Shown: positions 1,310 to 18,761 of the stretch, in pieces
How positions within the stretch are numbered: position 1 is the first letter of the stretch
Layout: the number at the start of each line of letters is the position of its first letter
NCBI GenBank assembly: GCA_029933115.1
Contig: JAOZOT010000004.1
Coordinates: forward strand, 1-35,941
DNA from: Anaerolineae bacterium
Lineage (GTDB): Bacteria; Chloroflexota; Anaerolineae; E26-bin7
Reading direction: 5' to 3'
Length of the DNA: 35,941 nucleotides
Program-made: the position numbers and the translations under genes
Notes under the pieces: model-generated
Database searches by the model: none
Told to the model about the DNA's origin: nothing
What the model saw: the letters and a program-made list of their open reading frames with translations, nothing else

Positions 1310-1774
1310 ATGACGGGCCCAGGGGAGGACAGCGGGCGCATTTTGGTAATTGACGAAAGGAAAGCCACCGGCGACTCCCTGGGCCTTATCCTGCGAAACA
1401 GTGGGTACAATGTCAGCGTGGTCTATAGTATGGACAAAGCACTGACAGAGACGCAGACCGGGGGCTTTGACCTGGTCATTGCCGACGTAAAGGTGCCAAC
1501 TTTGGATAGCCTGGAGATTCTGCGCCAGATAAAACAACACGATGCTGACATCGTCATCATCATGACCACCGACTACCCCACCCTGGAGACGGTCATAAAA
1601 GCTATCCGCTACAACGCTTACGATTATCTGATCAAACCCTTGGACAAAACCGATGAAGTGCTGGCCGTTGTCGGACAGGGGTTGCGCAAACGGCGATCCT
1701 TGTTGGCGAACCGGCAGGCTGACAGAAGTTTATCGTCCGGTAAAGTGCCATCGGCTCAGATTCACCCCACCTGA
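1310..1774 (+). CDS. Single-domain response regulator (REC) with a C-terminal tail of about 40 aa and no recognisable output domain
   Basis: REC hallmarks: ILVIDE acidic pocket, phospho-acceptor context DLVIADVKVP, conserved Thr in IIMTT and Lys in DYLIKP. ATG at 1310 is preceded by AGGAG (1298-1302). The ORF track begins at an upstream TTG (1286). Confidence 0.85.
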   Translation: MTGPGEDSGRILVIDERKATGDSLGLILRNSGYNVSVVYSMDKALTETQTGGFDLVIADVKVPTLDSLEILRQIKQHDADIVIIMTTDYPTLETVIKAIRYNAYDYLIKPLDKTDEVLAVVGQGLRKRRSLLANRQADRSLSSGKVPSAQIHPT

Positions 1775-2982
1775 TTGGTACTACCAAAGAGCAGCCGAGA
1801 GTCGGAGAAGAGCCACCTGCCAGATTGCAGGTGGCTCTCTTCTTGCCCCCCTATCTCGATTTCGAAATCGAGGGGCACTAGTTGCACCCATGTGTTGCCG
1901 GGTTTGAGGGGGAAGGGCCTCCCTTCACTATCTACGTAACGCAGCATGTCTGGCCGCCGGCGTCGTATCCACCTGACCTCGTAGGCTCGCCCATCGCGCA
2001 GAATGATAGCGCGCCCCTCTCCCCAGAGTTGGATTTCAATCGAATGAGCTCCCAACTCATCCTCAACGATGTCGGTCTCAACGTGATTGACGTAGAGCAC
2101 GACGACGTTCCGGACGGCAATCTGCTCCCCGGTCACCTCGTCAAGATGAGGCTCACCCAACACCGAGCGCAAATAGACCTGGCGCTCAGGGTCATATTGA
2201 TATTCAGCCGTGGCATACTGAGCGTTATAAACTATGGAAAGGTGAGTGGCCGGGCTTCCCCCATCCGGTGGTTCCTCAGCAAAGACCAGTCCCGTCAAGT
2301 CCTGACGGCTGTCCCATCCCCTTCTCTCCGCAGCCTGCCACAATGTTTCGGTATCGGTGAAGAGAGTGTTCTCATAAGCTTTGCCTTCTGCCGGGACTCG
2401 ATAGATGATCTCATCCGAGTCCGGGTCTCTGAACAGAGGGTCGGGAGACAGCAGCCGGTCGCTGAAATCACATTTTTGAAAGCGTGGTACAAGGCCGGGG
2501 CTGACTCCGGAGAAGATGAGGATGGCTTTATACATGGCTGGAATTTCCAGATCAATGAGGCGCGCACTGCGGATGCAGCCTATCTTCTCGGCCTTCTGGC
2601 AGAGGTAAATAGCTGTGAAACGGGTCAGGTTGGCTTCTGTCAGATGCTCAAATACAATGTCGGCTCGGTTGAGGCCGGCTTGAGGGCGGACAGCATTCGG
2701 GAAGTTGGAGATCTTCACGGCCAAAGGCCGGCGCTCCAGAACGCGGGGGTCGCTGACCTTCTCACCTGTGAGGGGGCAGATGTCAGGGGGCAGCGTGGGC
2801 AAAGCCTCTGGGGTAGGGGACTCTGTTGGGGTCGGGGCCAGGGTGGGCGTGGAGGTAGGCGTAGCCGTTGACTGCAATTGAGCGATTAACTCGGGAGTAT
2901 CGGTCGGTGTGGACGTTGCAGAAGAGCCGCCGGATGAGGAGCAGCCGCTGACGCCAGATGACAGCAATACCAACCAAGCCAT
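1762..2982 (-). CDS. DUF3048-family secreted lipoprotein (YerB-like) with a Pro/Thr-rich linker
   Basis: Signal peptide plus lipobox (MAWLVLLSSGVSGC), then a PT-rich linker. The conserved DUF3048 core follows: CPLTGEK...RRPLAVKISNFPNAVRPQAGLNRADIVFEHLTEANLTRFTAIY. I chose the ATG at 2982 (start of the signal peptide) over the ORF-track ATG at 3099. No strong SD precedes either. Confidence 0.75.
   Translation of the reverse strand: MAWLVLLSSGVSGCSSSGGSSATSTPTDTPELIAQLQSTATPTSTPTLAPTPTESPTPEALPTLPPDICPLTGEKVSDPRVLERRPLAVKISNFPNAVRPQAGLNRADIVFEHLTEANLTRFTAIYLCQKAEKIGCIRSARLIDLEIPAMYKAILIFSGVSPGLVPRFQKCDFSDRLLSPDPLFRDPDSDEIIYRVPAEGKAYENTLFTDTETLWQAAERRGWDSRQDLTGLVFAEEPPDGGSPATHLSIVYNAQYATAEYQYDPERQVYLRSVLGEPHLDEVTGEQIAVRNVVVLYVNHVETDIVEDELGAHSIEIQLWGEGRAIILRDGRAYEVRWIRRRRPDMLRYVDSEGRPFPLKPGNTWVQLVPLDFEIEIGGQEESHLQSGRWLFSDSRLLFGSTNQVG
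1810..1837. terminator. Perfect 11-bp stem hairpin GAGCCACCTGC-cagatt-GCAGGTGGCTC; possible terminator for the REC gene
   Basis: The inverted repeat was read directly. It is followed by CTCTTCTTG on the + strand (a weak U-tract). It lies 36 nt after the REC stop codon but inside the C-terminal tail of the convergent DUF3048 ORF. Confidence 0.3.
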
Positions 2983-3101
2983 TAAAATGTAAAGCGGAAA
3001 GCGAGCTCTGGACACGGTGGATGGACACCTCCGAAAACTATGGTATCCTGAGAATTTCACCCGTGACCTTCCGCGCGGGTGACAGTGCTTCGGCGACATT
3101 A

Positions 3102-3197: not shown

Positions 3198-3329
3198 ATG
3201 GCCTGCGGAGCGGGCTCCGGGGGCTTGACTGAACTCGGCCAGAGTCCTTACGTCAAGGGCTTGAGGCCCTTAGTCGAGCACTTTGAAACGGTGCCTTCTA
3301 ACAGCCTCCCCTTCAAACAGTTGACTTAA
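3198..3329 (+). CDS. Candidate 43-codon small ORF (MACGAGSGGLTELGQSPYVKGLRPLVEHFETVPSNSLPFKQLT)
   Basis: GGGAGG at 3183-3188 lies 9 nt before the ATG. Third-codon-position G+C is 30/42 by manual count, similar to neighbouring genes. I recognise no family, so it could be spurious. Confidence 0.2.
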   Translation: MACGAGSGGLTELGQSPYVKGLRPLVEHFETVPSNSLPFKQLT

Positions 3330-3349
3330 AGCAAGAGTGAGGGTATAAT
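3321..3349 (+). promoter_or_regulatory. Near-consensus sigma-70-like promoter TTGACT-17 nt-TATAAT
   Basis: Hexamers and the 17-nt spacer were counted directly. The promoter lies about 70 nt upstream of the DUF4388 start, at the head of the 24-gene plus-strand block. Confidence 0.5.
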
Positions 3350-3422: not shown

Positions 3423-4250
3423 ATGGCACTTAAGGGAAACCTGAGGGACTTTAGCACCACACAACTGCTCAATCTCATCAATCTGGCGCGCAAGACGGGC
3501 GCTTTGACCATTGAAGCGCAGGGGACTTCGGCCAAGTTGTTCTTCAAGGAGGGGAAGCTAATCCATGCCTCTCTGGGTGATCAGGATGGGCACCTAGCTA
3601 ACATGTTGCTTAAGGCGGGCAAGCTCAGCGCCGAGCAAACCAGAGCCATCCAGGCCCATTCCGAGGTTGATTCTGATAAGGAGCTTGGGCTTCTTTTGAT
3701 TAACGCCGGCTATGTTACCCAGAACGACATTGTGCAGAGCGTCAAGGCTTACATTTTGGATGTGGTCTACACGCTCTTTACCTGGGTGGAGGGCCTGTTC
3801 TATTTCGAGCCCAATATCCTTCCCTCAGAAGACAAGATTACCGTACCTATCAACCTCGAAAACGTTATTATGGAGGGGAGTCGTCGGCTCAAGGAGTGGG
3901 AGAGATTGCAAGATGAACTCCCTGATTTGAACAGGGCCTTGCGGTTCACAGACCGGCCTGATACTAAACTCCGTGACATTAACCTGAGCGTAGAGGAATG
4001 GCGAGTTATTTCGTTCATAAATCCGCGCAACACCATCAAACAGATAGCCCAGTCTAACAACATGGACGACTTCCAAATTCGGAAAATCGTCTATGGTATG
4101 CTCCAGGCTGGTTTGGTGGAGTTGGTGACACCGGAAGGGGGTGAGGCAAAACCGGGAATGCCACCTGGACGCCCAAGGACTGCGGCACCGCCGCCGGCGG
4201 TGAAGCGGGGGGTGATCCTGCGTCTGATTGATAGGATTAAAAAGATATAG
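3423..4250 (+). CDS. PATAN/DUF4388-domain protein with a C-terminal wHTH-like (DUF742/CvnC-like) region
   Basis: The N-terminus, MALKGNLRDFSTTQLLNLINLARKTGALTIEAQGTSAKLFFKEGKLIHASLG, matches the DUF4388 (PATAN) pattern. The C-terminal segment LSVEEWRVISFINPRNTIKQIAQSNNMDDFQIRKIVYGMLQAGLVELV resembles the DUF742-type winged-helix pattern; that second call is tentative. Confidence 0.7.
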   Translation: MALKGNLRDFSTTQLLNLINLARKTGALTIEAQGTSAKLFFKEGKLIHASLGDQDGHLANMLLKAGKLSAEQTRAIQAHSEVDSDKELGLLLINAGYVTQNDIVQSVKAYILDVVYTLFTWVEGLFYFEPNILPSEDKITVPINLENVIMEGSRRLKEWERLQDELPDLNRALRFTDRPDTKLRDINLSVEEWRVISFINPRNTIKQIAQSNNMDDFQIRKIVYGMLQAGLVELVTPEGGEAKPGMPPGRPRTAAPPPAVKRGVILRLIDRIKKI

Positions 4251-4506
4251 GCACACTCTTGAGGAGAGGGCTTGCGCAGCCGGTCGGGGTGTGGGGGGTG
4301 TCCCTCCACCACTCTTCTTTTCCCTCACCAAGTGGGAGAACGGCCCACCTAGTCTGCTTTCGGGGCCGGGAAAGTGGGGTTGGGGAGGTACCCCTCAAGC
4401 TCCCCAGGCTTTGCAAGCCCAGAGGCGGAGAGCCGGGAAGAGGCAAGGAAAGGTTTCTCGTTGCCCTTCCAAATCTTATCTGAAAGAGAAGGGGTAGATA
4501 GTCAAA

Positions 4507-5043
4507 ATGCAAACGGTAAAAATGGTCGTCACAGGCCCTTTCAGTGCTGGCAAAACAGAATTCATCAGAACCATCAGTGAGATTGACGTCGTTTCAACCG
4601 AGCGCAAAATCACTGATGAAACCAAGAGCATCAAAGAAGAAACAACAGTGGCCATGGATTTCGGGCGTATCACTGTTGATGAGGATTTGGTCTTATATCT
4701 TTTTGGCACACCCGGGCAGAAGCGCTTCGACTTTATGTGGGAGATTCTGTCTGAGGGGATGCTAGGCTTCATCGTGCTCGTAGACAGTGTTCGCCCCGAG
4801 ACCTTCCGCGAGGCGAGACGTATACTCGATGTCTTCAGCAGTTACGGCGCCGCCACGCCCTACATCGTGGCCGCCAACAAACAGGATCTGCCTGATGCAT
4901 GGCCGCCTGAAGACCTGCGCATCGCCTTGAAAATAGACCGGAATGTAAAAGTTCTACCTTGTGTGGCCACCGACAAAGAGAGCGTCAAGAATGTCCTTCT
5001 GGAGCTCCTGTACTCTATCTTGGAGGGGACCGAAGAGGAATAG
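4507..5043 (+). CDS. Small Ras-like GTPase of the prokaryotic CvnD/MglA-related (COG2229-type) group
   Basis: P-loop GPFSAGKT, switch-II FGTPGQ and G4 NKQD are all present. 178 aa. Confidence 0.85.
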   Translation: MQTVKMVVTGPFSAGKTEFIRTISEIDVVSTERKITDETKSIKEETTVAMDFGRITVDEDLVLYLFGTPGQKRFDFMWEILSEGMLGFIVLVDSVRPETFREARRILDVFSSYGAATPYIVAANKQDLPDAWPPEDLRIALKIDRNVKVLPCVATDKESVKNVLLELLYSILEGTEEE

Positions 5044-5148: not shown

Positions 5149-5943
5149 TTGAGTTCCATAGTTACGGATAAAGGCATCGTTCATTACGAAGTAGATGGAC
5201 GTGGCAAACCCCTCGTTTTCCTGCATGGTTGGTTGGGTTCATGGGGTGTCTGGCGCGAAATCATGTTGACTATCTCTAGTCTGCGCCGATATAAAATCTA
5301 CGCACTGGATTTCTGGGGCTTTGGGGATTCGGCGAAAAAGAGCGCACCTTTCTTCACCGTCCCCTCATACGTGTTTATGGTGGATCAGTTCATGGAGATA
5401 ATGGGAATCGCTCAGGCCCCAGTGATCGGCCACTCGATGGGAGGAACAGTGGCCATGAATCTCGCTTTGGAACACCCCTCCCGGGTCGAGAAAGTGGTCG
5501 TCATAGGTTCTCCTATGGTAGGCAGCTCCCTTAACATTTTGCTCAAGCTCGCCGGCCATCAATTCATCGCTTCTCTCGTCTGGAGTAACCTTGGCCTGTT
5601 GCGCCTGGGCCTGAGACTGTTCTCCTCCAGGCTGGCCAAAGATGGCCCCAAGCTTTACAGGATGATCGAAAAAGACCTCTCTCAGACAACAGTAGAAGCG
5701 TTCTGGTGGAGCATAGCCTCGTTGCGAGACATCAACTTGCAGCCGTATCTTAACCAAGTGCAAGTGCCGACCTTGGCCATTTACGGCCGGAAAGATAACA
5801 TTGTCCACCCATCTCAGGCGGGGATTATTGGTGAAGAGATAAGGGACGCTCGAGTGGAGTGGATGAATGATTCCAAACATTTTCCCATGCTCGATGAGCC
5901 GGAACGATTTACCAGCGTTCTGCTGGATTTCCTGGCCTCCTAG
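5149..5943 (+). CDS. Alpha/beta-fold hydrolase (copy 1)
   Basis: Oxyanion region FLHGW, nucleophile elbow GHSMGG, acid in GRKDNIV and His in SKHFPMLDEP. The TTG start at 5149 is supported by N-terminal alignment with the paralog at 27648 (MSSIVTDKGIVHYE vs MSAIVIDGGLIHYE) and by GGAGGGG upstream. Confidence 0.85.
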   Translation: MSSIVTDKGIVHYEVDGRGKPLVFLHGWLGSWGVWREIMLTISSLRRYKIYALDFWGFGDSAKKSAPFFTVPSYVFMVDQFMEIMGIAQAPVIGHSMGGTVAMNLALEHPSRVEKVVVIGSPMVGSSLNILLKLAGHQFIASLVWSNLGLLRLGLRLFSSRLAKDGPKLYRMIEKDLSQTTVEAFWWSIASLRDINLQPYLNQVQVPTLAIYGRKDNIVHPSQAGIIGEEIRDARVEWMNDSKHFPMLDEPERFTSVLLDFLAS

Positions 5944-6154
5944 TTGCATGGTCAGAAACCCCTCGCTCAGTTCGGGCGCGTGGGGTAGAGAGATGGGGAT
6001 GTCACCCCAACCCTCGTCCCTCCACAGAAATGAGGGACTGCCCCTGATTGGAGACAAGAGGCCGTTTGGGAATCTGAACTGCTCCTCGGACCTTCGCTAC
6101 GCAAGCCAACTTCCGGTCGCCTGCGCTTTGATATGCCACGAGGAGGTACAAGGC

Positions 6155-6805
6155 ATGACAGAAGGCAAGGCTGAAACCCCTGCCACTGAAGTGAAGTACT
6201 ACTGGCCTAATAAAATGGGGCGCATTGCCCTCCTGGCCTTAGAGGACGTAATGGGCAGAAATGGAGTAAATGCCGTCCTCAACCTGGCCAAGCTAAGGCA
6301 TCTGGTCAACAACTATCCGCCTAACAACCTCGACTTGCAATTCAGCTTTGACGAGTTTAGCGCCATCCAACAAGCTCTTGAAGATATGTATGGTCCACGA
6401 GGTGGCAAAGGGTTGGCCTTGCGCCAGGGCCGAGCCGCTTTCAAGTACGCCCTCAGGGAGTTTGGAGCAGTATTGGGTATCACCGACCTAGCCTTCCGAC
6501 TGTTGCCTCTGGGATTGAAGATGAAAGTGGGCTTGAACGCCATCGCTGAGACTTTTAATAAATTCACCGATCACAAAGTTCACATCGAAGAGGAAGCCGA
6601 TCGTTTCATCTGGGTCATTGAACGATGCATCGTGTGTTGGAACAGGAAATCTGATGTGCCGTGCTGCCACGCCGCAGTGGGCATTTTACAGGAGGGCGCC
6701 CACTGGGTGAGTGGGGGGAAAAACTTTCGCATTGAAGAGATAACCTGCATCGCTATGGGTGATCCTACCTGCAATATTATTATTGATAAAAAGCCACTGG
6801 ATTAG
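6155..6805 (+). CDS. V4R (4-vinyl-reductase-type) small-molecule-binding domain protein (copy 1)
   Basis: The C-terminal V4R Cys pattern is present: ERCIVCWNRKSDVPCCHAAVGILQEGAHWVSGGKNFRIEEITCIAMGDPTCNIII. ATG at 6155 is preceded by AGGAGG (6141-6146). The ORF-track extension back to 5867 overlaps the hydrolase gene and was not used. Confidence 0.8.
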   Translation: MTEGKAETPATEVKYYWPNKMGRIALLALEDVMGRNGVNAVLNLAKLRHLVNNYPPNNLDLQFSFDEFSAIQQALEDMYGPRGGKGLALRQGRAAFKYALREFGAVLGITDLAFRLLPLGLKMKVGLNAIAETFNKFTDHKVHIEEEADRFIWVIERCIVCWNRKSDVPCCHAAVGILQEGAHWVSGGKNFRIEEITCIAMGDPTCNIIIDKKPLD

Positions 6806-6913: not shown

Positions 6914-6978
6914 AATCCCAATTGCAGTCTGCTGAGACTCGGCTCCGACGGGCGAAGGGAAGCGCGAGTTGCATAGCT

Positions 6979-8226
6979 ATGAAAAAGGTCATCATTCGCG
7001 ATAAGACAAAGATACCACCTTTCAACGAGCCGGCCAGGGGACTGCGTGTGCTAAACAAGCCTCTCTGGCTCTACCAGCGTGATGTCCTGGCCAAATATTG
7101 TACTATGGAAGTCGAGGTGAACTCTTTTGACGAGATCGCCGTTGACGATGAAGAAGTGCTTGTCTACCGTGACAATCTCTTCTTCGACGGCCCCTTCATT
7201 GATGCTTTCATCTCCGCAGCCCGCGCTTCAGGTAAGGCTTGCCGGGTGGCCTTCGCCCCTGATGATAAAGCTATCGTCGCTCATGCTCTTCCTCTGCAAA
7301 GTGGTATCAGAAGAGAGGGAGACGTTTTCGTCGCTGACCTCTGGTACTTTCCCCGAGGCATTGATGAAAAGCCCATGCCTCTAGTTATTGACACCCAAGC
7401 CACCGAGATTGGCTTCTACAATATTCCGGCCTACATGGCCGCCGACGCCAAAGACCTCGTCTATCACGTTCCTCTCAGAGCTTTTCTCTCGATAGAGAAT
7501 TGGGTGCACATCCTGATGGCCAATTCTCCTTTTGGCATCCTGGCCGAGGGCGCGCGCATGGAGAGGGAATTGACCAAGCCCTCCGTCCAACTGAAGATAT
7601 TGGCCCGCTCTCTCTTGGAGCGCAAGCAGCTTCTCTCCTGCTCGGCTCTGGTCAAAGTAGGCAAAGACACCCAGATTGACCCTACAGCCATCATCCAGGG
7701 GCCGACTCTCATTGGAGATAACGTCAAAATCCACGCCGGGGCGGTGATCGTCAATTCCATCATTGGCAACAACGTCAATGTGATGCAAGGGACCCAATTG
7801 TGCCTTAGCGTAGTCAGCGATGGCTGTTACATGCTTTTTCGTTCGGCCCTTTTCATGAGCGTCCTGATGGAGCGTTCGACGGTGGCCCAGAACGCTTGCT
7901 TGCATTTGTGCGTCATCGGGCGCGACTCCTTTGTCGGTGCCGGTACCACCTTCACCGACTTTAACCTGATCCCCAAACCGCTGCGGACGATGCATCAAGG
8001 AGAGCTCCGCCCGGTGGGGCGCACGGTGATGGGGGGATGTGTAGGCCATAACTGCCGCATCGGCGCCGACCTGACCATCTACCCCTGCCGTACCATAGAA
8101 TCCGACAGCGTGCTGGTCCGCTCTGACGAGCGGGCGGTGATTGTCAAAAACGTCAGCTACGAAGATAGCGATCATCATCGCCTGCGGGAGGGGCATCGCC
8201 ATCCTCGTCTATATCCCAGGGACTAG
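6979..8226 (+). CDS. Left-handed beta-helix (hexapeptide-repeat) protein with a nucleotidyl/acyl-transferase-like fold; function unknown
   Basis: The C-terminal half shows hexapeptide periodicity (IIQGPTLIGDNVKIHAGAVIVNSIIGNNVNVMQGTQL ... VIGRDSFVGAGTTF ... GGCVGHNCRIGADLTIYP). The N-terminal half lacks a canonical GxGTR nucleotidyltransferase motif. I chose the ATG at 6979 (MKKVIIRD) over the upstream TTG at 6922. Confidence 0.55.
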   Translation: MKKVIIRDKTKIPPFNEPARGLRVLNKPLWLYQRDVLAKYCTMEVEVNSFDEIAVDDEEVLVYRDNLFFDGPFIDAFISAARASGKACRVAFAPDDKAIVAHALPLQSGIRREGDVFVADLWYFPRGIDEKPMPLVIDTQATEIGFYNIPAYMAADAKDLVYHVPLRAFLSIENWVHILMANSPFGILAEGARMERELTKPSVQLKILARSLLERKQLLSCSALVKVGKDTQIDPTAIIQGPTLIGDNVKIHAGAVIVNSIIGNNVNVMQGTQLCLSVVSDGCYMLFRSALFMSVLMERSTVAQNACLHLCVIGRDSFVGAGTTFTDFNLIPKPLRTMHQGELRPVGRTVMGGCVGHNCRIGADLTIYPCRTIESDSVLVRSDERAVIVKNVSYEDSDHHRLREGHRHPRLYPRD

Positions 8227-8243: not shown

Positions 8244-9326
8244 ATGGACAACTTTGCTTTCATCATCCATCCCATTGAGCCCAAGAAGGACGTGGCCCGC
8301 AAGTTCAAGCTCTTTGGCTATCTGCCGACCGGCGTCATTGACTACTTCTGTCTTTTTTACCCGCCGGTGTACATCTCTCACATCACGGGCATCCGTTCCA
8401 TCACCGGGCGCGAGATTGAAGGTTGGTTCGTGGCCTGTCCTCTCACCCCAACGCGGATGATGCAGGTGCCAACCGAAGTAGCCTACCGCAAAATTGTGCA
8501 GACGGGCAAGCTCGCGGAAAAGCTGGGGGCAAAGATCCTGGGGTTAGGGGCTTTCACCTCAGTGGTTGGCGACGCCGGCCTCACCATATCCAAGCGCCTC
8601 TCCATCCCGGTGACCACCGGCAACAGCTACACTGTGGCCGTAGCCATCGAGGCCATACGCGAAGCGGCCAGACAAATGGAGATAACTCTGAGCGAGGCAA
8701 AAGCGGCCGTGGTTGGGGCCACAGGTGCGGTGGGAAGCGTCTGCGCTCAACTGCTGGCCCGGGACGTGGCAGAGATAGCCCTGGTGGGAAGGCGGCTGCC
8801 TCGCCTGGAGGAAATCAAAGCCCACGTCCAGGCCATGGGAGACGCCCATGTGAGCCTGGCCACTGAGATAGAAGCTATCAAAGACGCCGATTTGATCATC
8901 ACGGTGACCAGCGCCATCGAAACCATCATCGAGCCCCATCACCTCAAACCGGGAGCTGTGGTCCTCGATGTAGCTCGCCCTCGCGATGTCTCCCGCCGGG
9001 TGGTGGAAGAGCGGGATGACGTGCTGGTCATCGAGGGGGGGATGGTGGAGGTGCCCGGCCCTGTGGATTTTGGCTTCGATTTCGGTTTTCCCCCCAAGAT
9101 GGCTTACGCCTGCATGGCCGAGGTCATGATCCTGGCCCTGGAAGGGCGTTACGAAAGCTACACCCTGGGGCGGAATATAACGGTGGAGCAAGTGGAGGAG
9201 ATAGCGTCACTGGCCGTGAAGCACGGTTTCAGACTGGGCGGCTTTCGCTCATTTGAACGCGCCGTGACAGGGGAGGAGGTGGAATCAGTCAAAGAGAACG
9301 CCCGTAGAAGAAGGATGAGGCCCTAG
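8244..9326 (+). CDS. COG5322-type NAD(P)-dependent oxidoreductase related to cyanobacterial acyl-ACP reductase (AAR)
   Basis: Collinear motif matches to AAR as I recall it: LGLGAFTSVVGD, TTGNSYTVA, the Rossmann motif VVGATGAVGS, and MAYACMAEVMILALEGRYESYTLGRNITVEQVEEI. The last includes the Cys aligned with the AAR acyl-enzyme Cys. Confidence 0.7.
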   Translation: MDNFAFIIHPIEPKKDVARKFKLFGYLPTGVIDYFCLFYPPVYISHITGIRSITGREIEGWFVACPLTPTRMMQVPTEVAYRKIVQTGKLAEKLGAKILGLGAFTSVVGDAGLTISKRLSIPVTTGNSYTVAVAIEAIREAARQMEITLSEAKAAVVGATGAVGSVCAQLLARDVAEIALVGRRLPRLEEIKAHVQAMGDAHVSLATEIEAIKDADLIITVTSAIETIIEPHHLKPGAVVLDVARPRDVSRRVVEERDDVLVIEGGMVEVPGPVDFGFDFGFPPKMAYACMAEVMILALEGRYESYTLGRNITVEQVEEIASLAVKHGFRLGGFRSFERAVTGEEVESVKENARRRRMRP

Positions 9327-9844: not shown

Positions 9845-10732
9845 ATGAATAAAGGCAGGATCCTGGTCGTGGAAGATGACCTCGATATCTCCAACATGCT
9901 GCGTATCTATTTCGACTCGCAAGGATATGAGGTCCTCGTGGCCGGACGGGGTGGCGATGCTCTGGAGCTTTGCCGCAAAAAACTGCCCCATGTGGTGGTT
10001 CTGGACATCATGTTGCCCGATATGGATGGCTATGAGGTCTGTAAAAAACTACGCAGCAACCTGCGCACCAGCCACATCCCCATCATGTTTCTGACGCAGA
10101 GGGATGAGCGGACAGACAAGATCGCCGGCCTGGAGCTAGGCGCCGATGATTACATCACCAAGCCCTTCGACATTGAGGAGCTGAAATTCCGCATCCAGAA
10201 CGCGGTTGCACGGACCACCCGTGAGAGCCTGACCAATCCTGTCACGGGGTTGCCCAGCGGCAAATTAATTGAAGAACAACTCAGACTCCTCATGCGGCGG
10301 GAAGGCTGGGCCATCCTGTACATCGGCCTCAGAGATTTTGGGCCTTTCAACGAGGTCTACGGTTTCGTGGCCGGTGACGACGTCCTCCGCTTCACAGCTA
10401 TGGTCATAGGAGATGCCGTTGACGAACTGGGAACGCCCAATGACTTTATTGGGCATACAGCAGCCAACGACTTTGTCGTCATCACAGCGACCGAACGTGC
10501 ACAAGCGATCAAAGAAAAGATCACGGAGCGTTTCGCCACCGAGGTGGGCACCTTTTACAACTTCAAGCATCGGGAACAAGGCTACATCATTGTTCAGGAC
10601 CCCGATGGCCGGGAGAAGCAGGTGCCTCTGATGACTCTGGCGGTGGGCGTCATAGCCTATGACGATGGCCCTTTCGCCGACATAAGAGAGATCACAGAGA
10701 GGGCCGCCGAAGCCAGACGCGAAAGCAAATGA
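9845..10732 (+). CDS. Response regulator: REC + degenerate (probably catalytically inactive) GGDEF domain
   Basis: REC: ILVVEDD, VVVLDIMLPDMDG, DYITKPF. GGDEF-like fold markers are present (NPVTGLPSGK, NEVYGFVAGDDVL). However, the signature reads GHTAANDFVVI instead of RxGG(D/E)EF, and the metal-binding Asp positions read YIGLRDF. GGAGG lies 9 nt before the ATG. Confidence 0.85.
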   Translation: MNKGRILVVEDDLDISNMLRIYFDSQGYEVLVAGRGGDALELCRKKLPHVVVLDIMLPDMDGYEVCKKLRSNLRTSHIPIMFLTQRDERTDKIAGLELGADDYITKPFDIEELKFRIQNAVARTTRESLTNPVTGLPSGKLIEEQLRLLMRREGWAILYIGLRDFGPFNEVYGFVAGDDVLRFTAMVIGDAVDELGTPNDFIGHTAANDFVVITATERAQAIKEKITERFATEVGTFYNFKHREQGYIIVQDPDGREKQVPLMTLAVGVIAYDDGPFADIREITERAAEARRESK

Positions 10733-10768: not shown

Positions 10769-13700
10769 ATGGATGGCGAGCAGCACGTTGCTTTCAGGGA
10801 GTATTCAAAGGTGAAGGTGACCCCTAATAGCAGCACTACTAATAGAATAGACCAGGCCAGGTTAGCCAAATTGTCCTCGCTTAACTTCTCCATTCGAGAG
10901 GGACTGGAAAACCTGTATCAGACCATTGCCCGGGCTGCGGCAGAGATTTTTGAGATGCAAATTTCGGCCGTGATGGTGCTCTCAGAAGACAATCGCTACC
11001 TGGAGATGGCAGCGGCCGTAGGACTGCCAGAGGATACCTCGTCTGGAAAAATCTTCTGCGGGCAGGGGATCTCTGGCAAGGTGGCCGATTCGGGCCGGCC
11101 TTTCGTCACCGATGACATTACCAGATACCTGTCTGAACAGGGCATCGAGGTGGAAAGACACTATCGGGCCGCTTTCGCCTCCGTGCCGATGATGGCGGGC
11201 GGGCGCATCATTGGCGTTCTCAACGTCTGCGACCCCCAAAATGGCGCGGCGATCACTGAGCACGACCTGAGCCTCCTCACCATAATGGCCAACCAGGCAG
11301 CCACCGCCATCAACAACGCTCGTCTTTACACCAACCTCCAGCGCCGTGTTGATAACCTGGCTGTGATCAACGAAATAGGGCGGGCCATCAGTGCCATGCT
11401 CGAACCAGAAACACTCCTGAGTACTATCGTCGAGACCAGCGCTCAGCTTCTGGATTGTGATTACGCGACCATCTTCCTGCCTGACCAACATGATGGGTAC
11501 TTTGTCCCCCGGATGAGCTACAGATATGAACTGGAGGAGGCAAAGCGCCTTCACTTTGCCCCTGGTGAGGGACTAGTCGGTCACGTGGCTGCAACGGGTG
11601 AGGCGTTGATTGTGCCCGATACCAGCACCGACCCACGCTTCTCGCCTGGGCCCGTCGAGGTGGGTTCCATGCTGGTGGTTCCCCTGTCTACCAGGGACAA
11701 GGTGATAGGAGTATTGACGGCCGAAAAGAAGGAAAAAGAGGGGTTTGACGTCACCGATCAACTCCTCCTATCCACCCTGGCCGATCAAGCGGCTATCGCT
11801 ATCGAGAACGCTCGCCTCTACGATTCTGAGCAGGCCCGGCGGCGTTTGGCCGATACTTTACGCCAGGTGTCGGAGGTGGTGAGCTCCACTCTGGAACTCA
11901 GCGAGGTTCTGGAATTGATCCTGGACCAACTGCGAAGGGTGGTGGACTATGACAGTGCCTCCATCCAACTCCTGGTGGGAGATCGCCTGGAGATTATCGC
12001 CGGCCGGGGCTTTGCCGATGTGGATAAGGTGATTGGGCTTTCCTTCCCCCTCGATGGCCATAACCCCAATCGCCACGTCATCGCTGAAAAGAAATCCCTG
12101 ATCATACCCGATGCTCCGGCTGTTTATGAAGCCTTCCGTCAAGAACCTCACTCCCACATCCGCTCCTGGTTGGGGGTGCCCCTGCTGTTCAAGGACAAAG
12201 TGATAGGCATGATCGCGCTGGACAAGACGACGGTGAATTACTACACCGAAGAAGATGCGCGCTTGGCTATGACTTTTGCCCTTCAAGCTGCTGTAGCCCT
12301 GGAGAACGCCCGTCTTTATAAAGAAGTACGTCAACGAGCGGCTCAACTGGAGGCCACGAGCGAAGTTGGCCGACGTATCATCTCCATCCTCGACCTCGAT
12401 GAATTGCTCCACCAGGTAGTCGAACTTATCCGGCAGATTTTGGGCTACTATCACGTCCACATCTTCCTCGTTGATTCCGCGGCCAACGAGGCTGTTTTCC
12501 AGGCGGGCGCCGGCAAGATCGGACGGCTCATCGCAGAACAAGGCGGGGTGCGCCTTAAGATCGGCGAGCAGGGCATCATCGGCTGGGTGGCCGGTGCCGG
12601 CCAGCCTTTGCTGGTGAACGACGTCTCGCAAGAGCCAAGATATGTGCCTAACAAAGCCCTGCCTGACACCAAATCCGAACTGGCAGTGCCATTGAAGATC
12701 GGAGAGCGAGTCATTGGCGTCCTGGACGTACAAAGTGATGAACTGGGGGCTTTTAACGCCGAGGACATAGCTATATTGCAGACCTTGGGCGATCAGGTAG
12801 CCATCGCCATCGAGAACGCACGCCTGTACAAAGAGCTCACTCGCTCTGCCCAAGAGTTGGAACAAAAGGTTGAGGAGCGAACTGAGGAGCTGGCCCAGGC
12901 CCTCAGAGACCTCACTGCGGAACGCGACCATGTTGAGACCCTTTACCGCATCACCAGAGACCTGGGAATCAGCCTGGACCTCGATCGGGTTTTGATTCAG
13001 GCTCTGGCTCTGATTAATGAGGCCGTGGGAGTGGAGCACGGCTCCATCATGCTGCTCGATCACGAATCGGGTAACCTCATCTACCGTGCGGCTCTGGGCC
13101 GTGATAAGCCTCTGCCGCGCGGAGGCAAGATGACGGACTTTAGAAAAGGTGTGGGACTGGCCGGCTGGGTCCTGGAGCACCAGGAACCGGTCATCATCGA
13201 GGATGTATCCAAAGATGAGCGCTGGCTGGTGCGCCCCGGCCAGGAGCGGGTGAGCAAAGCGACTCTGGCTGTGCCCCTGGTGACGGACGGAGATGTTCTG
13301 GGGGTCCTTCTCCTCCACCATCCTCAGCCGGGCTATTTCAACGAGACCCATCTCAAGCTGGTCTCGGCGGCGGCCAGTCAGGTTGCCGCATCCATCAACA
13401 ATGCCGAACTCTACCGCATGATCAGAGAGTCGGCCGAGAGGCTAGGGGGCATGTTGCGTGCCCAGCAAGAGGAAGCCTCAAAGAGCCGCGCCATCCTGGA
13501 AGGCATCGCCGACGGGGTAATGGTCGCCGATGCCCGGGGCGACATTATCCTGCTTAACGCGGCGGCCGAAGAGATCCTGGGTGTTTCGCGGGAGGAAATT
13601 ACCGGCCGACCGATATATGAACTGAGCGGCCTCTACGGGGCAGAAGGCGACACCTGGCTCGCCCTGGTAAGGGAATGGGCCCAGGCCCTGCCGGCAGAAG

Positions 13701-15316
13701 GCGAGCCCGCGACCTTCGAGAGCCGCTTTGAAACCGAGGAAAAGGTAGTCAATGTGCACATGGCGCCGGTGTTGATGGGAGATGAATTCCTGGGCACAGT
13801 CTCTGTCTTCCGGGACATCACCAAAGAAGTAGCCATTGACCGCATGAAAAGCGAACTTATTTCCACCGTCTCTCACCAACTGCGCACTCCCATGACCTCC
13901 ATCAAAGGCTACACCGACCTGCTTTACCTGGAAACAGTGGGAGAAATCAACGAAGCTCAAAGGCGGTTCCTGAGCATCATCAAGTCCAACGCCGACCGCC
14001 TGGCCCTCCTGGCCAATGACTTGCTGGACATCTCGCGGATTGAAACCGGGCGGATCAGACTCAACCCCGAATTCCTCCACATAAGCGACATCATCGAAGA
14101 AATCGCTGCCTCCCTCCGAGGGCAAATTGAAGAGAAGGGCCTCAGCCTGAAGCTGGATATACCAGAAGGGCTGCCCCCGGTGTACGGGGATCGTGGCCGG
14201 GTGACTCAGATTTTGACCAACCTGGTTGACAACGCCCGCCAGTATACCCCATCTGGTGGTCAGATTACCGTCTCTGCCCAACTCAAAGACGGCCTCTTGC
14301 AGGTGAGCGTGGCGGATACGGGCATCGGCATCGCTCCTGAAGAGCAGGAGAAAATCTTTGATCGCTTCTACCGGGCCGATCACCCCCTTGTACAAGAGGT
14401 AGCCGGGACGGGCCTGGGCTTGCCTATCGCCAAGGCCTTCGTGGAAATGCACGGTGGCGAGATTTGGGTCGAGAGTGAGCCCGGCCAGGGAAGCACCTTC
14501 AGCTTTACCCTGCCTCTTGCAGAGAGGAAGAGGGAAGAGGAACTCACCCCCTTGCCTGTGTCCCTGGCTCCCTCCAAACAAATTCTGGTCGTGGAAGATG
14601 AGCCGGACATCGCAGAGTTGATTCGCTATCACCTGGAAGGCAACGGGTACAGAGTGACAACTGTCGCTCGGGGCGAAGAAGCCCTGGCCAAGGCCCACCA
14701 GGACAGACCAGACCTGATCACTTTGGACATCCGTCTCCCCGACATGGACGGCTTCGAAGTGCTGCAACAATTGAAATCCGATGAGGAAACGGCCGATATT
14801 CCGGTGGTGATCCTATCCATCGTGCCAGACCAGGGGGATGGTTTCCGCCTCGGAGCCGTTGATTACGTGACCAAGCCCGTTGACGAGGGAAGGCTGCTCT
14901 CGGCCATCGGCGCTATCCTGTCCAAGGAAGACTTGATCCTGGTGGTTGACGATGACCGAGACACCACAAGATTGGTACAGGAAGTGCTGGTCAGAGCCGG
15001 TTTTACAGTGAGGACAGCCAACAATGGATTTGAGGCCCTGGTCATAGCTCGGCGGGAGCAGCCCGGGTTGATCCTTCTGGATCTGAAGATGCCCGGCCTG
15101 GATGGCTACGAGGTCCTCAGACGCCTGAAGCAAGACAGGACCACACAAAACATACCCGTCGTGGTCGTGACCGGCAGCGTCACCGATGAAGAGGTAAAGC
15201 GCCAAAAAGTTTTGGCCCTGGGGGCAGCCCAGTTCTTAACCAAACCCTTTGCTATTGATGACTTTGTCGAGGAGATAAGGCGGGTTATGAGCGCTCCCGG
15301 CCCGATAGTCAGCTAA
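10769..15316 (+). CDS. Giant hybrid sensor histidine kinase: 5 x GAF - PAS - HisKA - HATPase_c - REC - REC
   Basis: Five GAF modules each end in an xENARLY-type helix (AINNARLY, AIENARLY, ALENARLY, AIENARLY, SINNAELY). PAS starts at ILEGIADGVMVAD. H-box SHQLRTPMTSIKGY, N-box NLVDNARQY, G-boxes DTGIGI / GTGLGL. Two receivers are present (ITLDIRLPDMDG; ILLDLKMPGLDG). The start is uncertain: ATG 10769 has no SD, and in-frame GTG 10811 is preceded by AGGGAG. Confidence 0.9.
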   Translation: MDGEQHVAFREYSKVKVTPNSSTTNRIDQARLAKLSSLNFSIREGLENLYQTIARAAAEIFEMQISAVMVLSEDNRYLEMAAAVGLPEDTSSGKIFCGQGISGKVADSGRPFVTDDITRYLSEQGIEVERHYRAAFASVPMMAGGRIIGVLNVCDPQNGAAITEHDLSLLTIMANQAATAINNARLYTNLQRRVDNLAVINEIGRAISAMLEPETLLSTIVETSAQLLDCDYATIFLPDQHDGYFVPRMSYRYELEEAKRLHFAPGEGLVGHVAATGEALIVPDTSTDPRFSPGPVEVGSMLVVPLSTRDKVIGVLTAEKKEKEGFDVTDQLLLSTLADQAAIAIENARLYDSEQARRRLADTLRQVSEVVSSTLELSEVLELILDQLRRVVDYDSASIQLLVGDRLEIIAGRGFADVDKVIGLSFPLDGHNPNRHVIAEKKSLIIPDAPAVYEAFRQEPHSHIRSWLGVPLLFKDKVIGMIALDKTTVNYYTEEDARLAMTFALQAAVALENARLYKEVRQRAAQLEATSEVGRRIISILDLDELLHQVVELIRQILGYYHVHIFLVDSAANEAVFQAGAGKIGRLIAEQGGVRLKIGEQGIIGWVAGAGQPLLVNDVSQEPRYVPNKALPDTKSELAVPLKIGERVIGVLDVQSDELGAFNAEDIAILQTLGDQVAIAIENARLYKELTRSAQELEQKVEERTEELAQALRDLTAERDHVETLYRITRDLGISLDLDRVLIQALALINEAVGVEHGSIMLLDHESGNLIYRAALGRDKPLPRGGKMTDFRKGVGLAGWVLEHQEPVIIEDVSKDERWLVRPGQERVSKATLAVPLVTDGDVLGVLLLHHPQPGYFNETHLKLVSAAASQVAASINNAELYRMIRESAERLGGMLRAQQEEASKSRAILEGIADGVMVADARGDIILLNAAAEEILGVSREEITGRPIYELSGLYGAEGDTWLALVREWAQALPAEGEPATFESRFETEEKVVNVHMAPVLMGDEFLGTVSVFRDITKEVAIDRMKSELISTVSHQLRTPMTSIKGYTDLLYLETVGEINEAQRRFLSIIKSNADRLALLANDLLDISRIETGRIRLNPEFLHISDIIEEIAASLRGQIEEKGLSLKLDIPEGLPPVYGDRGRVTQILTNLVDNARQYTPSGGQITVSAQLKDGLLQVSVADTGIGIAPEEQEKIFDRFYRADHPLVQEVAGTGLGLPIAKAFVEMHGGEIWVESEPGQGSTFSFTLPLAERKREEELTPLPVSLAPSKQILVVEDEPDIAELIRYHLEGNGYRVTTVARGEEALAKAHQDRPDLITLDIRLPDMDGFEVLQQLKSDEETADIPVVILSIVPDQGDGFRLGAVDYVTKPVDEGRLLSAIGAILSKEDLILVVDDDRDTTRLVQEVLVRAGFTVRTANNGFEALVIARREQPGLILLDLKMPGLDGYEVLRRLKQDRTTQNIPVVVVTGSVTDEEVKRQKVLALGAAQFLTKPFAIDDFVEEIRRVMSAPGPIVS

Positions 15317-15332
15317 ATGGGCCGGGCGGTAT

Positions 15333-15342
15333 GACTTCAGTC
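15333..15342. repeat. Short copy of the GACTTCAGTC hairpin core of the REP-like family
   Basis: tatGACTTCAGTCgct lies in the 75-nt gap between two kinase genes. It shares the core with the elements at 30850-30870 and 35882-35902. Confidence 0.4.
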
Positions 15343-15391
15343 GCTCCAACGGCTAGGGCTGTCGCACCAACTGACAAATTGAGGTGAAGCC

Positions 15392-17605
15392 GTGTTTCGC
15401 CCAATTGACCCAGCGAAATTGAGCCCCGAGGAACGCTACGAATACGAGCAACTATTGCAGCGAGCCAAGTCCTTCATCAAGGTCAAGGCCATCATCAACG
15501 GGGTGATCTGTCTTCTCTTCCTGGCCACTTTTCGGCCCTCCATCAAAATGGCCATGACTCTTATCGCCCTGGTTGACGGCCTCCTGTTGATTCCCTATTG
15601 GCTGCTGGTGCGACGCTATCCCGTCCTGTCTACTTTTATGAGCCTGGGCTGCACCGCCATAGCTATATCGGCCGGTGATTGGGTGGGTGGCTATCAAACC
15701 GGGGCCTCAGGCATCATGTACGCCCTGCTGATAACGGTAGCCAACTTGATCCTGATCCACTCCTGGAGCACTTATCTGGCGGCAGGGATCATCTCTGCCA
15801 TCTACATGGGCACCATCATTTTGGAAGTGAAGGGGATCGTGCCTATCGTCTTCCCCCATACCATGGCCAACCTGGCGCGGGTGGTGACGATAAATGTTAT
15901 TTGCTTCTATGGGCTGGCTGCCTTGTCCAACGTGGTGACGAAACTTTATCGCGAGATGCTCTACGCTCGCACCCACGCCGAGGAGATTGCCGAGCAACGT
16001 ACTGCGGAACTGCGGAAGAGCCACGCCGAATTGAAGCGCACCACGGCTCACCTGAGCGCCCTCCAGCGCCTCAGCGAAGCCCTGCGCCGGGCAAGGGGCT
16101 TGGAAGCGACGTTGCAAACAGTGGTCGAAGAGATGGACCGCCTGGGTTTCAGGAGCGTCATCATTAGTCTGCTGGATAAGGAAAGCCACAGCCTCGTCGT
16201 CAGAGCGGCCTCTGGGAAAGGCGAACTCTACGAACAGGTTCAGCAGGTGCTAAAAGTCCCCCTGATCGGTCTCACCGTCTCTCTGGAAGAGACGGCCAAC
16301 ATCACCGTCAGAGTGGCCCGCAGCGGGGAGATGGAAAGTACCGATGACGTCAGAGAAATGATCGTGGGCATAAAGCCGGCCGTGGATCCCGCTCTGGTGC
16401 AAGCGGCCATGCGCCTGATAAAGGCGGATTCTATGACCGTCTTTCCCCTCTGGGCGGAGGAAGAGGTGGTGGGAGTGGTGAGCATCTACCATCCGCAAGG
16501 CAAGCTCTCTGCGGAGGATATTCATCTCATGCAGGCCATTGCCGACCAGGCGGGCCTGGCCATCGAGAACGCTCGTCTCTTCGCCGAGACCGTCAGCGAG
16601 CGGGCCAAGCTGGCGGCCGTCATCGCCAGCACCGAAGACGCCATCATAGTGACCGACGAAACAGACCATATCCTCCTGCTCAATCCTGCAGCAAGGCGGG
16701 CCTTCAGGCTAGACGGGGAAGACTGGGGAGGTCAACCGCTGGCTGAGGTGGTGGAGAACCAGGCCCTGCACGATCTCTTCAACAGGCTGGCCGCAGAAGG
16801 CGTAGCCCAGAACGCTGAAATCCCTGTGGACGGGCGCACCTTCTACGCCAATCTGGCCCCCATCCCCGGGGTGGGCAAGGTGTTAGCCATGCAAGACATC
16901 ACCTACCTCAAAGAACTGGACCAGATGAAATCCGATTTCGTGGCTACCGTCTCCCACGACCTGCGTTCGCCCTTGAGCATAATTGACGGCTACACAGACT
17001 TGTTGCAAGAGGTGGGTAGCCTCAACGAACAGCAGCACCAATTTGTAGAAAGGATCAAAGTGGCAACGACGAACATGGTCCGGCTTGTCACCGACCTGCT
17101 GGACCTGGGCAAGATTGAGGCCGGCCTGGAGATGGAGATGACACCTTGTGACCTGGAAGACATCATTGACCCGGTCGTCACCAACTTGCAAGGGTGGGCC
17201 GAGCGCAAAGGAATCGAGTTGCGGGTCGAGTTGCCGGAAAACGTCCCTCCGATCCGGGGAGACTCCATCCGGCTTCGCCAAGTTCTGACCAACCTGGTGG
17301 ATAATGCCCTGAAGTACACTCACGAGGGGGGGACGGTGGCCGTTCAAATGTCGGTGGACAACGGCACTGTGACCGTGCGGGTCAGGGACACAGGTATTGG
17401 CATCGGCCCTGACGATCTTCCCCACGTTTTCGACAAATTTTATCGCGTGGAAGGGGAGGAAACACGCGATATTGCCGGTACAGGACTGGGATTGGCTATC
17501 GCCAAGTCTATCGTTGAAGCGCACGGCGGGCGCATCTGGGCGGAGAGCGAGCCAGGGGCAGGTAGCGTTTTCAGCTTTACTCTACCCGTTCTGGAAAAAG
17601 GCTGA
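15392..17605 (+). CDS. Membrane-anchored sensor histidine kinase: about 6 TM - coiled coil - GAF - PAS - HisKA - HATPase_c
   Basis: The N-terminal 190 aa or so form successive hydrophobic helices. The GAF ends in LAIENARLF. H-box SHDLRSPLSIIDGY, N-box NLVDNALKY, DTGIGI, GTGLGL. The GTG start is preceded by GAGGTGA. Confidence 0.9.
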   Translation: MFRPIDPAKLSPEERYEYEQLLQRAKSFIKVKAIINGVICLLFLATFRPSIKMAMTLIALVDGLLLIPYWLLVRRYPVLSTFMSLGCTAIAISAGDWVGGYQTGASGIMYALLITVANLILIHSWSTYLAAGIISAIYMGTIILEVKGIVPIVFPHTMANLARVVTINVICFYGLAALSNVVTKLYREMLYARTHAEEIAEQRTAELRKSHAELKRTTAHLSALQRLSEALRRARGLEATLQTVVEEMDRLGFRSVIISLLDKESHSLVVRAASGKGELYEQVQQVLKVPLIGLTVSLEETANITVRVARSGEMESTDDVREMIVGIKPAVDPALVQAAMRLIKADSMTVFPLWAEEEVVGVVSIYHPQGKLSAEDIHLMQAIADQAGLAIENARLFAETVSERAKLAAVIASTEDAIIVTDETDHILLLNPAARRAFRLDGEDWGGQPLAEVVENQALHDLFNRLAAEGVAQNAEIPVDGRTFYANLAPIPGVGKVLAMQDITYLKELDQMKSDFVATVSHDLRSPLSIIDGYTDLLQEVGSLNEQQHQFVERIKVATTNMVRLVTDLLDLGKIEAGLEMEMTPCDLEDIIDPVVTNLQGWAERKGIELRVELPENVPPIRGDSIRLRQVLTNLVDNALKYTHEGGTVAVQMSVDNGTVTVRVRDTGIGIGPDDLPHVFDKFYRVEGEETRDIAGTGLGLAIAKSIVEAHGGRIWAESEPGAGSVFSFTLPVLEKG

Positions 17606-17657
17606 TTTGGGAAATCCCTCCGTTCCCTCAGCCCTGTGAGTCTTTTGAGGAGATTTG

Positions 17658-18068: not shown

Positions 18069-18100
18069 ACACGAAAGCACGAAACACGGAGAAGAGTAAC

Positions 18101-18754: not shown

Positions 18755-18761
18755 ACCAATC

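Follow-up and report, generated by a model that had tools for sequence, protein, structure and literature searches.

The 35,941-nucleotide stretch of DNA analysed here (the window; contig JAOZOT010000004.1 of assembly GCA_029933115.1, an Anaerolineae bacterium of the Chloroflexota) carries, on either side of an island of histidine kinases, an alpha/beta-hydrolase (ABH) gene followed by the gene for a V4R protein. This raises the question of why the same pair, ABH1-V4R1 and ABH2-V4R2, should stand twice in one signalling array, and of what it does there. The initial annotation took the pair for a ligand-processing and ligand-binding input cassette that had been recruited twice into one network. 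Our analysis leads to a different and tentative answer, to which we give slightly less than even confidence: both pairs would be ancient paralogous modules of a single, vertically inherited supra-operon, in which V4R acts as a ligand sensor on a switch protein or kinase and the hydrolase is an accessory. The module type would be an accessory small-molecule sensor attached to two-component and small-GTPase signalling, and the pairing is uncharacterised; as the initial annotation had supposed, a full-text literature search found no published description of a hydrolase-V4R or a GTPase-V4R module.

The four open reading frames (ORFs) were confirmed at their annotated positions, all on the forward strand, and so was their gene-for-gene paralogy. 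ABH1 and ABH2 are 38 % identical over their full length (E=4e-64) and V4R1 and V4R2 are 46 % identical over 199 aa (E=4e-66); the two hydrolases are each other's nearest relatives by a wide margin, and tblastn revealed exactly two ABH and two V4R copies in the window. Both hydrolases score well above the Abhydrolase_1 cut-off of 25.8 bits (110 for ABH1 and 96 for ABH2), whereas the V4R gathering score of 31 is exceeded by V4R2 at 49.4 and narrowly missed by V4R1, which falls 0.6 bit below it at 30.4. The shared motifs reported for the hydrolases and the V4R proteins were found, except that the first Cys motif is C-x2-C in V4R1 only (RCIVCW) and C-x-C in V4R2 (ECPCRW). The hydrolases further share HGWxxSWxxW, DxWGFG and HFPM, and an unusually conserved N-terminal hairpin (S2, H12-Y13-E14, G17 and G19). 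Each pair does follow a switch protein, a small GTPase in the first case and a single-domain receiver in the second, and the island between them does hold four GAF/PAS histidine kinases, together with a partner-switching module.

Outside this genome the hydrolase-V4R pair proved to be a conserved unit: over 90 independent genomic and metagenomic loci contain it. The comparison covered 46 genome loci obtained with V4R2-type seeds and 80 metagenome loci obtained with V4R1-type seeds, with all window proteins mapped onto them, and the named homologues were all Anaerolineae or Chloroflexota metagenome-assembled genomes. V4R2-type proteins gave 233 matches, V4R1-type proteins 2172 and ABH1 6623 at E<=1e-3, the best 120 of these 6623 all being orthologues; a joint V4R1 and V4R2 profile matched 1618 representatives of 50 %-identity clusters, 1023 of them at E<=1e-10 and 358 at E<=1e-30. 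An ABH1 orthologue lies directly 5' of V4R1 in 66 of the 67 V4R1-type loci with evaluable upstream DNA (the exception is L113), and nearly all V4R1-type loci keep the order PATAN, GTPase, ABH1, V4R1, left-handed beta-helix (LbH) transferase, reductase (not always present) and receiver (REC), with a PATAN orthologue 5' of the GTPase gene in 51 loci. CheY-ABH2 stands upstream in 28 of 42 V4R2-type loci, and the CheY orthologue directly 5' of ABH2 (about 27 genome loci) is 55-91 % identical to that of the window; the other V4R2-type loci have PATAN-GTPase directly upstream (8), Roadblock/LC7 (2), unrelated neighbours (4) or contig ends (4). Hydrolase-seeded look-ups found V4R downstream in two of three cases.

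The bracketing layout is itself conserved, since CheY-ABH2 follows the first pair 6-8 kb further on along the same contig in three loci (L105, L122 and L125); the contigs of two others (L106 and L118) stop at the CheY gene. The whole array from PATAN to V4R2 recurs in Chloroflexota of the class Anaerolineae, and distant representatives (profile E ~1e-42) again show PatA_N, GTPase, ABH, V4R, LbH, reductase-like, REC-GGDEF and GAF kinase genes. The two copies reported by the initial annotation are real, but a single ancient duplication within a vertically inherited supra-operon describes them better than two recruitments.

These data also bear on whether the adjacency is fortuitous, a product of the close relatedness of the sampled genomes, or whether the genes belong to an anti-phage defence system. 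All loci do come from one bacterial class, and other proteins carry V4R joined to TIR and CHAT domains. However, the pairing survives in more than 90 loci and in both paralogous lineages down to 46-55 % (ABH) and 52-60 % (V4R) identity, the ABH and V4R ORFs are tightly spaced or overlap, by 1-8 nt in four distant, gene-called loci, no PADLOC model matches any of eight cluster proteins, and the genes around a TIR-V4R gene are unrelated. The pairing thus goes well beyond what chance or close relatedness would produce; the conservation data largely refute adjacency or defence as an explanation, which we consider very improbable. Median identities to the window, measured in diverged loci, place the GTPase as the slowest-evolving protein of the array (80 %) and the hydrolases as the fastest (52 % for both ABH1 and ABH2), with CheY at 65 %, PATAN at 64 %, V4R1 at 67 %, V4R2 at 59 %, the reductase at 66 % and the LbH protein at 57 %.

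V4R is among the oldest predicted small-molecule-binding domains and, to our knowledge, has no defined function or ligand outside the phenol-responsive activators. The AlphaFold2 (AF2) model of V4R1, built from an 89-sequence alignment, has a mean predicted local distance difference test score (pLDDT) of 91.3 and a predicted template-modelling score (pTM) of 0.87, and shows a two-layer alpha/beta fold. Searched against the PDB with Foldseek, it matched H-NOX proteins first (Nostoc H-NOX, template-modelling (TM) score 0.72, E=3e-6), then the MopR, PoxR and DmpR sensors, and then TRAPPC3/Bet3, with a probability of 1.00 to all three groups. In a PDB profile search, the invariant C161, E184, C187 and C195 of V4R2 aligned to C155, E178, C181 and C189 of MopR, and the corresponding residues of V4R1 are C171, E195, C198 and C206. 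Since these residues align to the zinc ligands of MopR, the Cys-rich C-terminal core is a predicted structural zinc site of V4R domains; an additional CxxC (C158 and C161 in V4R1) is invariant in V4R1-type proteins. The V4R proteins are not canonical haem sensors, as they have no HNOB match in Pfam and alignments A1-A3 contain no invariant His. An identity as BchJ (TIGR02019) was rejected, as the scores were 22.9 and 30.1 bits (cut-off 74.3) and the window has no pigment genes.

Fusions were surveyed among the 150 best V4R family representatives, with a domain scan of the 10 that were clearly over-length. These are C-terminal fusions (P0384, P0413, P0425, P0402, P0476, P0465 and P0434) carrying the same full-length V4R module in TIR-V4R, Ser/Thr kinase-V4R, kinase-TIR-V4R, CHAT-FHA-V4R and TPR-V4R arrangements, a C-terminal location that is typical of a sensory or regulatory module. 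The TIR-V4R gene (P0384, locus L130) is found among transporter and glycosyltransferase genes.

The initial annotation had treated hydrolase and V4R as a conserved two-protein unit, but the hydrolase is not an obligate partner of V4R. V4R directly follows the same GTPase, with no hydrolase, in nine loci over both locus sets; in the eight V4R2-type loci with PATAN-GTPase upstream, no hydrolase was found within the flanks examined; Roadblock-V4R pairs occur; and ABH1 is sometimes found without V4R1. The hydrolase-free PATAN-GTPase-V4R triads are flanked by housekeeping genes (an ECF transporter; thiamine pyrophosphokinase, S1 and a Clp ATPase) and are thus self-contained, linking V4R in function to the GTPase module regardless of any hydrolase. 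V4R and a switch protein, rather than hydrolase and V4R, look like the core of the system. The window GTPase has the P-loop GPFSAGKT, the MglA-type switch II/G3 motif FGTPGQ (TxPGQ, with Thr for Asp) and NKQD, and matches Thermus thermophilus MglA (PDB 3t12, E=4e-9). A PATAN gene beside an MglA-family GTPase gene is a described association, in a survey that does not mention V4R or hydrolase partners (PMC4316618). No ORF for a cognate MglB (Roadblock/LC7) was found in the window, either with Pfam or with Roadblock queries from related loci.

Such arrangements are what would be expected if V4R, as a Bet3/TRAPPC3-fold protein acting alone or with a Roadblock/MglB-type protein, regulated the MglA-like GTPase as an exchange factor, a co-factor of a GTPase-activating protein (GAP) or an effector. 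The hydrolase would then add or remove a lipid in the V4R pocket, as with the palmitate of Bet3, and in pair 2 this device would have been rewired to a CheY switch. The nine hydrolase-free loci, in which a GTPase of about 80 % identity is followed by V4R, agree with this, as do the MglB-like Roadblock/LC7 genes directly 5' of V4R in two loci (L038, 9495-9974, and L042, 9551-9937) and the GTPase-Roadblock-ABH-V4R array of a hydrolase-seeded locus (L134), where Roadblock lies at 3492-3863 between GTPase and hydrolase. The V4R1 model significantly matches TRAPPC3 structures (E ~1e-4), one of them from a TRAPPII-Rab11 complex, V4R has been proposed as the ancestor of Bet3 (PMC2253512), and V4R/TRAPPC3 proteins have zinc sites and ligand cavities (PMC10933270). 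However, the TM scores of the TRAPPC3 matches (0.41-0.52) are weaker than those of H-NOX (0.72) and MopR, no V4R-GTPase or V4R-Roadblock fusion was found among the over-length representatives scanned, and there is no GTPase near pair 2. Moreover, the known regulators of MglA are MglB, a GAP, and RomR/RomX, a guanine-nucleotide exchange factor, and not V4R proteins. On balance we hold this regulatory role to be unlikely. That V4R, a Roadblock/longin-type protein and a Ras-superfamily GTPase constitute ligand-gated, TRAPP-like GTPase regulation, with the hydrolase loading or stripping the V4R lipid and the device duplicated onto CheY, appears to us distinctly unlikely.

The two hydrolases were compared in an alignment of 65 ABH1-type and 31 ABH2-type sequences from the loci. 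The intact Ser-Asp-His triad attributed to both is present in both window proteins, but only the first lineage conserves it. In ABH1 (Ser96-Asp216-His244), Ser, Asp and His are kept in 65 of 65 orthologues, and the Ser is also invariant in the 63 sequences of alignment A4; the protein has a full helical cap (AF2 pLDDT 88). In ABH2 the cap is about 23 aa shorter, and although the window protein has Ser93, and Asp196 and His224 are invariant in 31 of 31 orthologues, Ser is the nucleophile in only 8, against Ala in 22 and Gly in 1, so that copy 2 does not conserve an intact triad. In the ABH2 tree, Ser and Ala forms are mixed, with Ala or Gly on the basal branches and Ser in four separate places; because this position has switched repeatedly, Ser-nucleophile chemistry is not what selection maintains in the lineage. 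The nucleophile showed no association with the CxC motif of V4R2. The sequences thus divide into an ABH1 lineage that is predicted to be catalytically competent and an ABH2 lineage whose nucleophile is dispensable, and the ligand-processing role first proposed for both pairs fits copy 1 but is not the general role of copy 2, where 23 of 31 orthologues have Ala or Gly at the nucleophile position and Ser and Ala alternate several times on the tree.

The hydrolases fall, as had been claimed, outside the characterised metabolic clades. None of the NCBIfam equivalogs PcaD, AcoC-like, PHA depolymerase, BioH, BphD, HsaD and BchO nears its cut-off; a meta-cleavage, PcaD or BioH identity was rejected for ABH1 (score against cut-off, in bits: BphD 58 and 462, HsaD 61 and 400, PcaD 102 and 256, BioH 80 and 207), and ABH2 is far below every NCBIfam cut-off. 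The Joint Genome Institute (JGI) name 'pimeloyl-ACP methyl ester carboxylesterase' is likewise unsupported, no NCBIfam equivalog being near its cut-off. Orthologues keep the same neighbours, which are signalling genes in all loci and not catabolic or biotin genes. The best PDB sequence matches (E ~1e-17) are generic esterases, enol-lactonase, meta-cleavage hydrolases and PhaZ, and the nearest folds to the AF2 model of ABH1 are an aryl esterase, an enol-lactonase and meta-cleavage hydrolases at about 21 % identity, with TM ~0.8 to esterases. None of RsbQ, KAI2 and D14 occurs in the 60 listed PDB sequence matches or in the top 50 from Foldseek, and the suggested relation to RsbQ and KAI2 is therefore reduced to an analogy.

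Beyond the first pair lie two enzyme-like genes. The LbH gene, directly 3' of V4R1 and present in about 59 loci, has Pfam matches of the LbH_EIF2B/GMPPB type, and its product matches GlmU-like proteins through the beta-helix only, its N-terminal ~210 aa matching nothing. The gene that follows, present in 42 loci, is labelled only Shikimate_DH by Pfam; its product is a full-length homologue of cyanobacterial acyl-acyl carrier protein reductase (AAR) and of the N-terminal reductase domain of PigE (PDB 6jzq AAR, E=3e-34, full length; NCBIfam PigE, E=2e-67, and AAR TIGR04058, E=6e-43, both below cut-off), in which the catalytic Cys is kept (AYACMAEVM aligned to FACFAEAM). An aldehyde-forming thioester reductase is unexpected within a signalling operon. 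Together with the invariant ABH1 triad, the LbH and reductase genes after V4R1 suggest a lipid-derived ligand for module 1.

The same genes allow for a metabolic account, in which ABH1, V4R1, the LbH protein and the reductase-like protein would form a small lipid pathway towards a fatty aldehyde, alcohol or hydrocarbon-type product. V4R would carry or chaperone a hydrophobic intermediate, and the signalling genes would be not direct partners but neighbours, either controlling the pathway or controlled by its product. ABH1-V4R1-LbH-reductase is contiguous in most loci, the reductase retains both its full-length homology to the cyanobacterial enzyme and its catalytic Cys, the ABH1 triad is invariant, and the NCBIfam BchJ model aligns weakly to V4R over nearly its whole length; BchJ is itself thought to be a chaperone of divinyl-protochlorophyllide, carrying a hydrophobic intermediate rather than acting as a reductase (PMC7242693). 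Pair 2, however, has no biosynthetic neighbours and mostly no nucleophile, and the reductase is missing from about 10 loci that retain ABH1-V4R1-LbH-REC (e.g. L061, L062, L064, L074 and L075). The PATAN-GTPase-V4R triads contain no enzyme genes, and the fusion partners of V4R are signalling or effector domains (TIR, kinase and CHAT) rather than enzymes. A metabolic role of this kind is improbable in our judgement, though not negligibly so.

The supra-operon of ligand-sensing modules that we tentatively favour would comprise, in order, PATAN, an MglA-like GTPase, in some cases MglB/Roadblock, ABH1, V4R1, LbH, the reductase-like protein, REC-GGDEF, GAF/PAS kinases, CheY, ABH2 and V4R2. V4R would be a zinc-stabilized sensor of the H-NOX/MopR type holding a small hydrophobic ligand, with V4R1 docking onto the MglA-like GTPase/PATAN module and V4R2 onto the CheY/histidine-kinase module, and the docked V4R would make the output of the switch ligand-dependent, much in the manner of stand-alone H-NOX proteins, which control the kinases or diguanylate cyclases next to them. 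The hydrolase would be an accessory subunit. ABH1 probably makes, trims or removes a lipid-derived ligand, a proposal based upon its invariant triad, its full cap and its acyl-thioester reductase-like and acyltransferase-like neighbours; ABH2, given its shortened cap and dispensable nucleophile, may be mainly a non-catalytic ligand-binding, co-receptor or adaptor subunit for V4R2. The ABH-V4R complex, the bound ligand and the docking of V4R on GTPase, CheY or kinase are all predicted from sequence and gene order.

Several observations weigh against this proposal. The invariant Asp and His of ABH2 could reflect Ser-independent catalysis rather than a non-catalytic role. An ABH-V4R fusion was not seen among the 150 best representatives, of which the 10 over-length ones were domain-scanned. 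Two loci (L037 and L133) keep PATAN-GTPase-ABH1-LbH but are without V4R1, and since ABH1 persists there, it has some V4R1-independent role. Co-evolution of ABH1 with V4R1 was not specific by mirror-tree analysis (PATAN, GTPase, ABH1, V4R1 and LbH over 33 loci): raw correlations were all 0.64-0.86, and the ABH1-V4R1 partial r of 0.17 was below that of several other gene pairs, so that the method did not discriminate between this proposal and its rivals. The data are fitted equally by V4R as an input sensor and as an output or regulator, and the 'input' of the initial annotation thus becomes one option, V4R being equally conceivable as a partner or regulator of the switch proteins. Finally, all of the evidence is drawn from one class of one phylum.

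Table 1. Features of the window, with their positions, strand and the basis of each assignment
Feature	Position	Strand	Basis or remark
DUF3048 gene	1762-3099	-	Divergent, upstream of PATAN gene
Sigma-70-like promoter match, near-consensus (11/12)	3321-3349	+	Promoter scan; just 5' of PATAN gene
PATAN (PatA_N / DUF4388) protein, array gene 1	3423-4250	+	Pfam DUF4388, E=9e-31
GC-rich terminator-like hairpin	4291-4309	+	Within PATAN-GTPase spacer
MglA-family small GTPase, switch protein of pair 1	4507-5043	+	Pfam ATP_bind_1/Arf/Ras
ABH1, alpha/beta-hydrolase, TTG start	5149-5943	+	Abhydrolase_1, E=1.4e-31
V4R1, stand-alone V4R / H-NOX-fold protein	6155-6805	+	Pfam V4R, 30.4 bits; AF2; Foldseek
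LbH (hexapeptide) transferase-like protein	6922-8226	+	Pfam Hexapep, LbH_EIF2B
AAR / PigE N-terminal family thioester reductase-like protein	8244-9326	+	NCBIfam, PDB 6jzq
REC-GGDEF response regulator, partial GGDEF match	9845-10732	+	Pfam
Kinase island	10769-27197	+	Pfam
GAF/PAS histidine kinases (four)	10769-15316, 15392-17605, 20180-22831, 22815-27197	+	Pfam
Partner-switching module inserted in kinase island	17655-20123	+	Pfam
Single-domain CheY-like receiver, switch protein of pair 2	27228-27608	+	Response_reg, E=1.9e-29
ABH2, alpha/beta-hydrolase paralogue	27648-28433	+	Abhydrolase_1, E=4e-27
V4R2, stand-alone V4R / MetOD1-like protein	28511-29131	+	Pfam V4R, 49.4 bits; MetOD1, E=1.8e-6
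Triosephosphate isomerase gene	First base 29132		Next base after V4R2 stop codon (29131/29132)

Further features were noted in and around the array (Table 1). The DUF3048 gene holds the same position in L134, which indicates that synteny reaches past the signalling array, and the triosephosphate isomerase gene is a V4R2 neighbour common only to the closest relatives (L001 and L002). The PATAN-GTPase spacer is unusually long in the window, at 256 nt compared to 20-90 nt in relatives. An ORF at 4228-4497, in this spacer, was considered as a Roadblock candidate and rejected, as it has no Pfam match and the Roadblock proteins of related loci match nothing in the window; with no family match, and a gap of only 20-90 nt in relatives, it was judged spurious. 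In most loci the REC-GGDEF gene follows that of the reductase or the LbH protein; its GGDEF match covers model positions 5-109 of 161 (E=1e-7), the L133 orthologue shows a receiver only, and the protein may be a degenerate cyclase. The partner-switching set consists of an RsbW/T-like kinase, HAMP-STAS, STAS, a second RsbW/T-like kinase and SpoIIE/PP2C. It looks like a lineage-specific insertion, since in most relatives only ~6 kb, with one giant GAF kinase gene, separate REC-GGDEF from CheY. The L037 system forms a single compact operon, without intervening kinases and with ABH2-V4R2 at its end, and in such arrays a single V4R may serve both hydrolases.

Our study places stand-alone V4R in a fixed and abundant gene context of thousands of proteins (358 clusters at 50 % identity and E<=1e-30), and V4R function becomes directly testable because its partners can now be named: an MglA-type GTPase, PATAN, sometimes MglB, CheY and a dedicated hydrolase. 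A catalytic ABH1 beside a nucleophile-losing ABH2 offers a natural control for an enzyme becoming a receptor or adaptor subunit. Anaerolineae abound in sediments, sludge and digesters and have received little study, and the system may be a major, unrecognized sensory pathway of the class. The linkage of V4R, Roadblock and GTPase genes is also relevant to the proposal that the TRAPP subunit Bet3 arose from V4R; if the TRAPP-like reading were true, the module would represent an early, prokaryotic form of TRAPP-type GTPase regulation under lipid control.

Of the known hydrolase-based systems, RsbQ-RsbP of Bacillus subtilis and the D14/KAI2 proteins of plants use a hydrolase as a co-sensor or receptor, and RsbQ and D14 need their nucleophile. 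Our locus resembles RsbQ-RsbP in having an alpha/beta-hydrolase gene beside the gene for a small-molecule-sensing signalling protein, but the partner of RsbQ is a PAS-PP2C phosphatase and here it is a stand-alone V4R; unlike in RsbQ and D14, the nucleophile is mostly lost in the ABH2 lineage. Stand-alone H-NOX proteins, the best structural match of V4R1, are also proteins of ~200 aa beside kinases, receivers and a GGDEF protein, whereas the V4R proteins show a Cys/Glu zinc motif in place of the HNOB match and invariant haem His. MopR, DmpR and PoxR are phenol-responsive sigma-54 activators whose V4R domains bind small aromatic ligands. They have the same fold and, residue for residue, the same zinc-ligand motif (C-x22-E-x2-C-x7-C), although their sequence similarity to V4R is limited to the C-terminal ~50 residues and their sensor is fused to AAA+ and DNA-binding domains, whereas here V4R is encoded on its own, beside a hydrolase and a GTPase or receiver. 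BchJ is a stand-alone V4R of the same size and architecture, but no pigment-biosynthesis genes occur in the window or related loci and its model scores are 23-30 bits against 74.3.

In the TRAPP core, Bet3-family and longin-type subunits act on Rab GTPases, and Bet3 holds palmitate. V4R, Roadblock and a small GTPase are genomically linked in our system and TRAPPC3 is a significant fold match; however, this is a bacterial system with an MglA-type GTPase and not a Rab, and the fold match is weaker than that to H-NOX or MopR. As in MglA/MglB/PATAN systems, the PATAN gene adjoins that of a GTPase with the MglA-type TPGQ motif, although the window is without MglB. A parallel to the CheY...V4R2 linkage is provided by the REC-MetOD1 fusions of methanogens, which combine a receiver with an HNOB/V4R-like domain containing three conserved Cys (PMC5847659): V4R2 matches MetOD1, but what is fused in methanogens is encoded here by separate genes, with the hydrolase gene between them.

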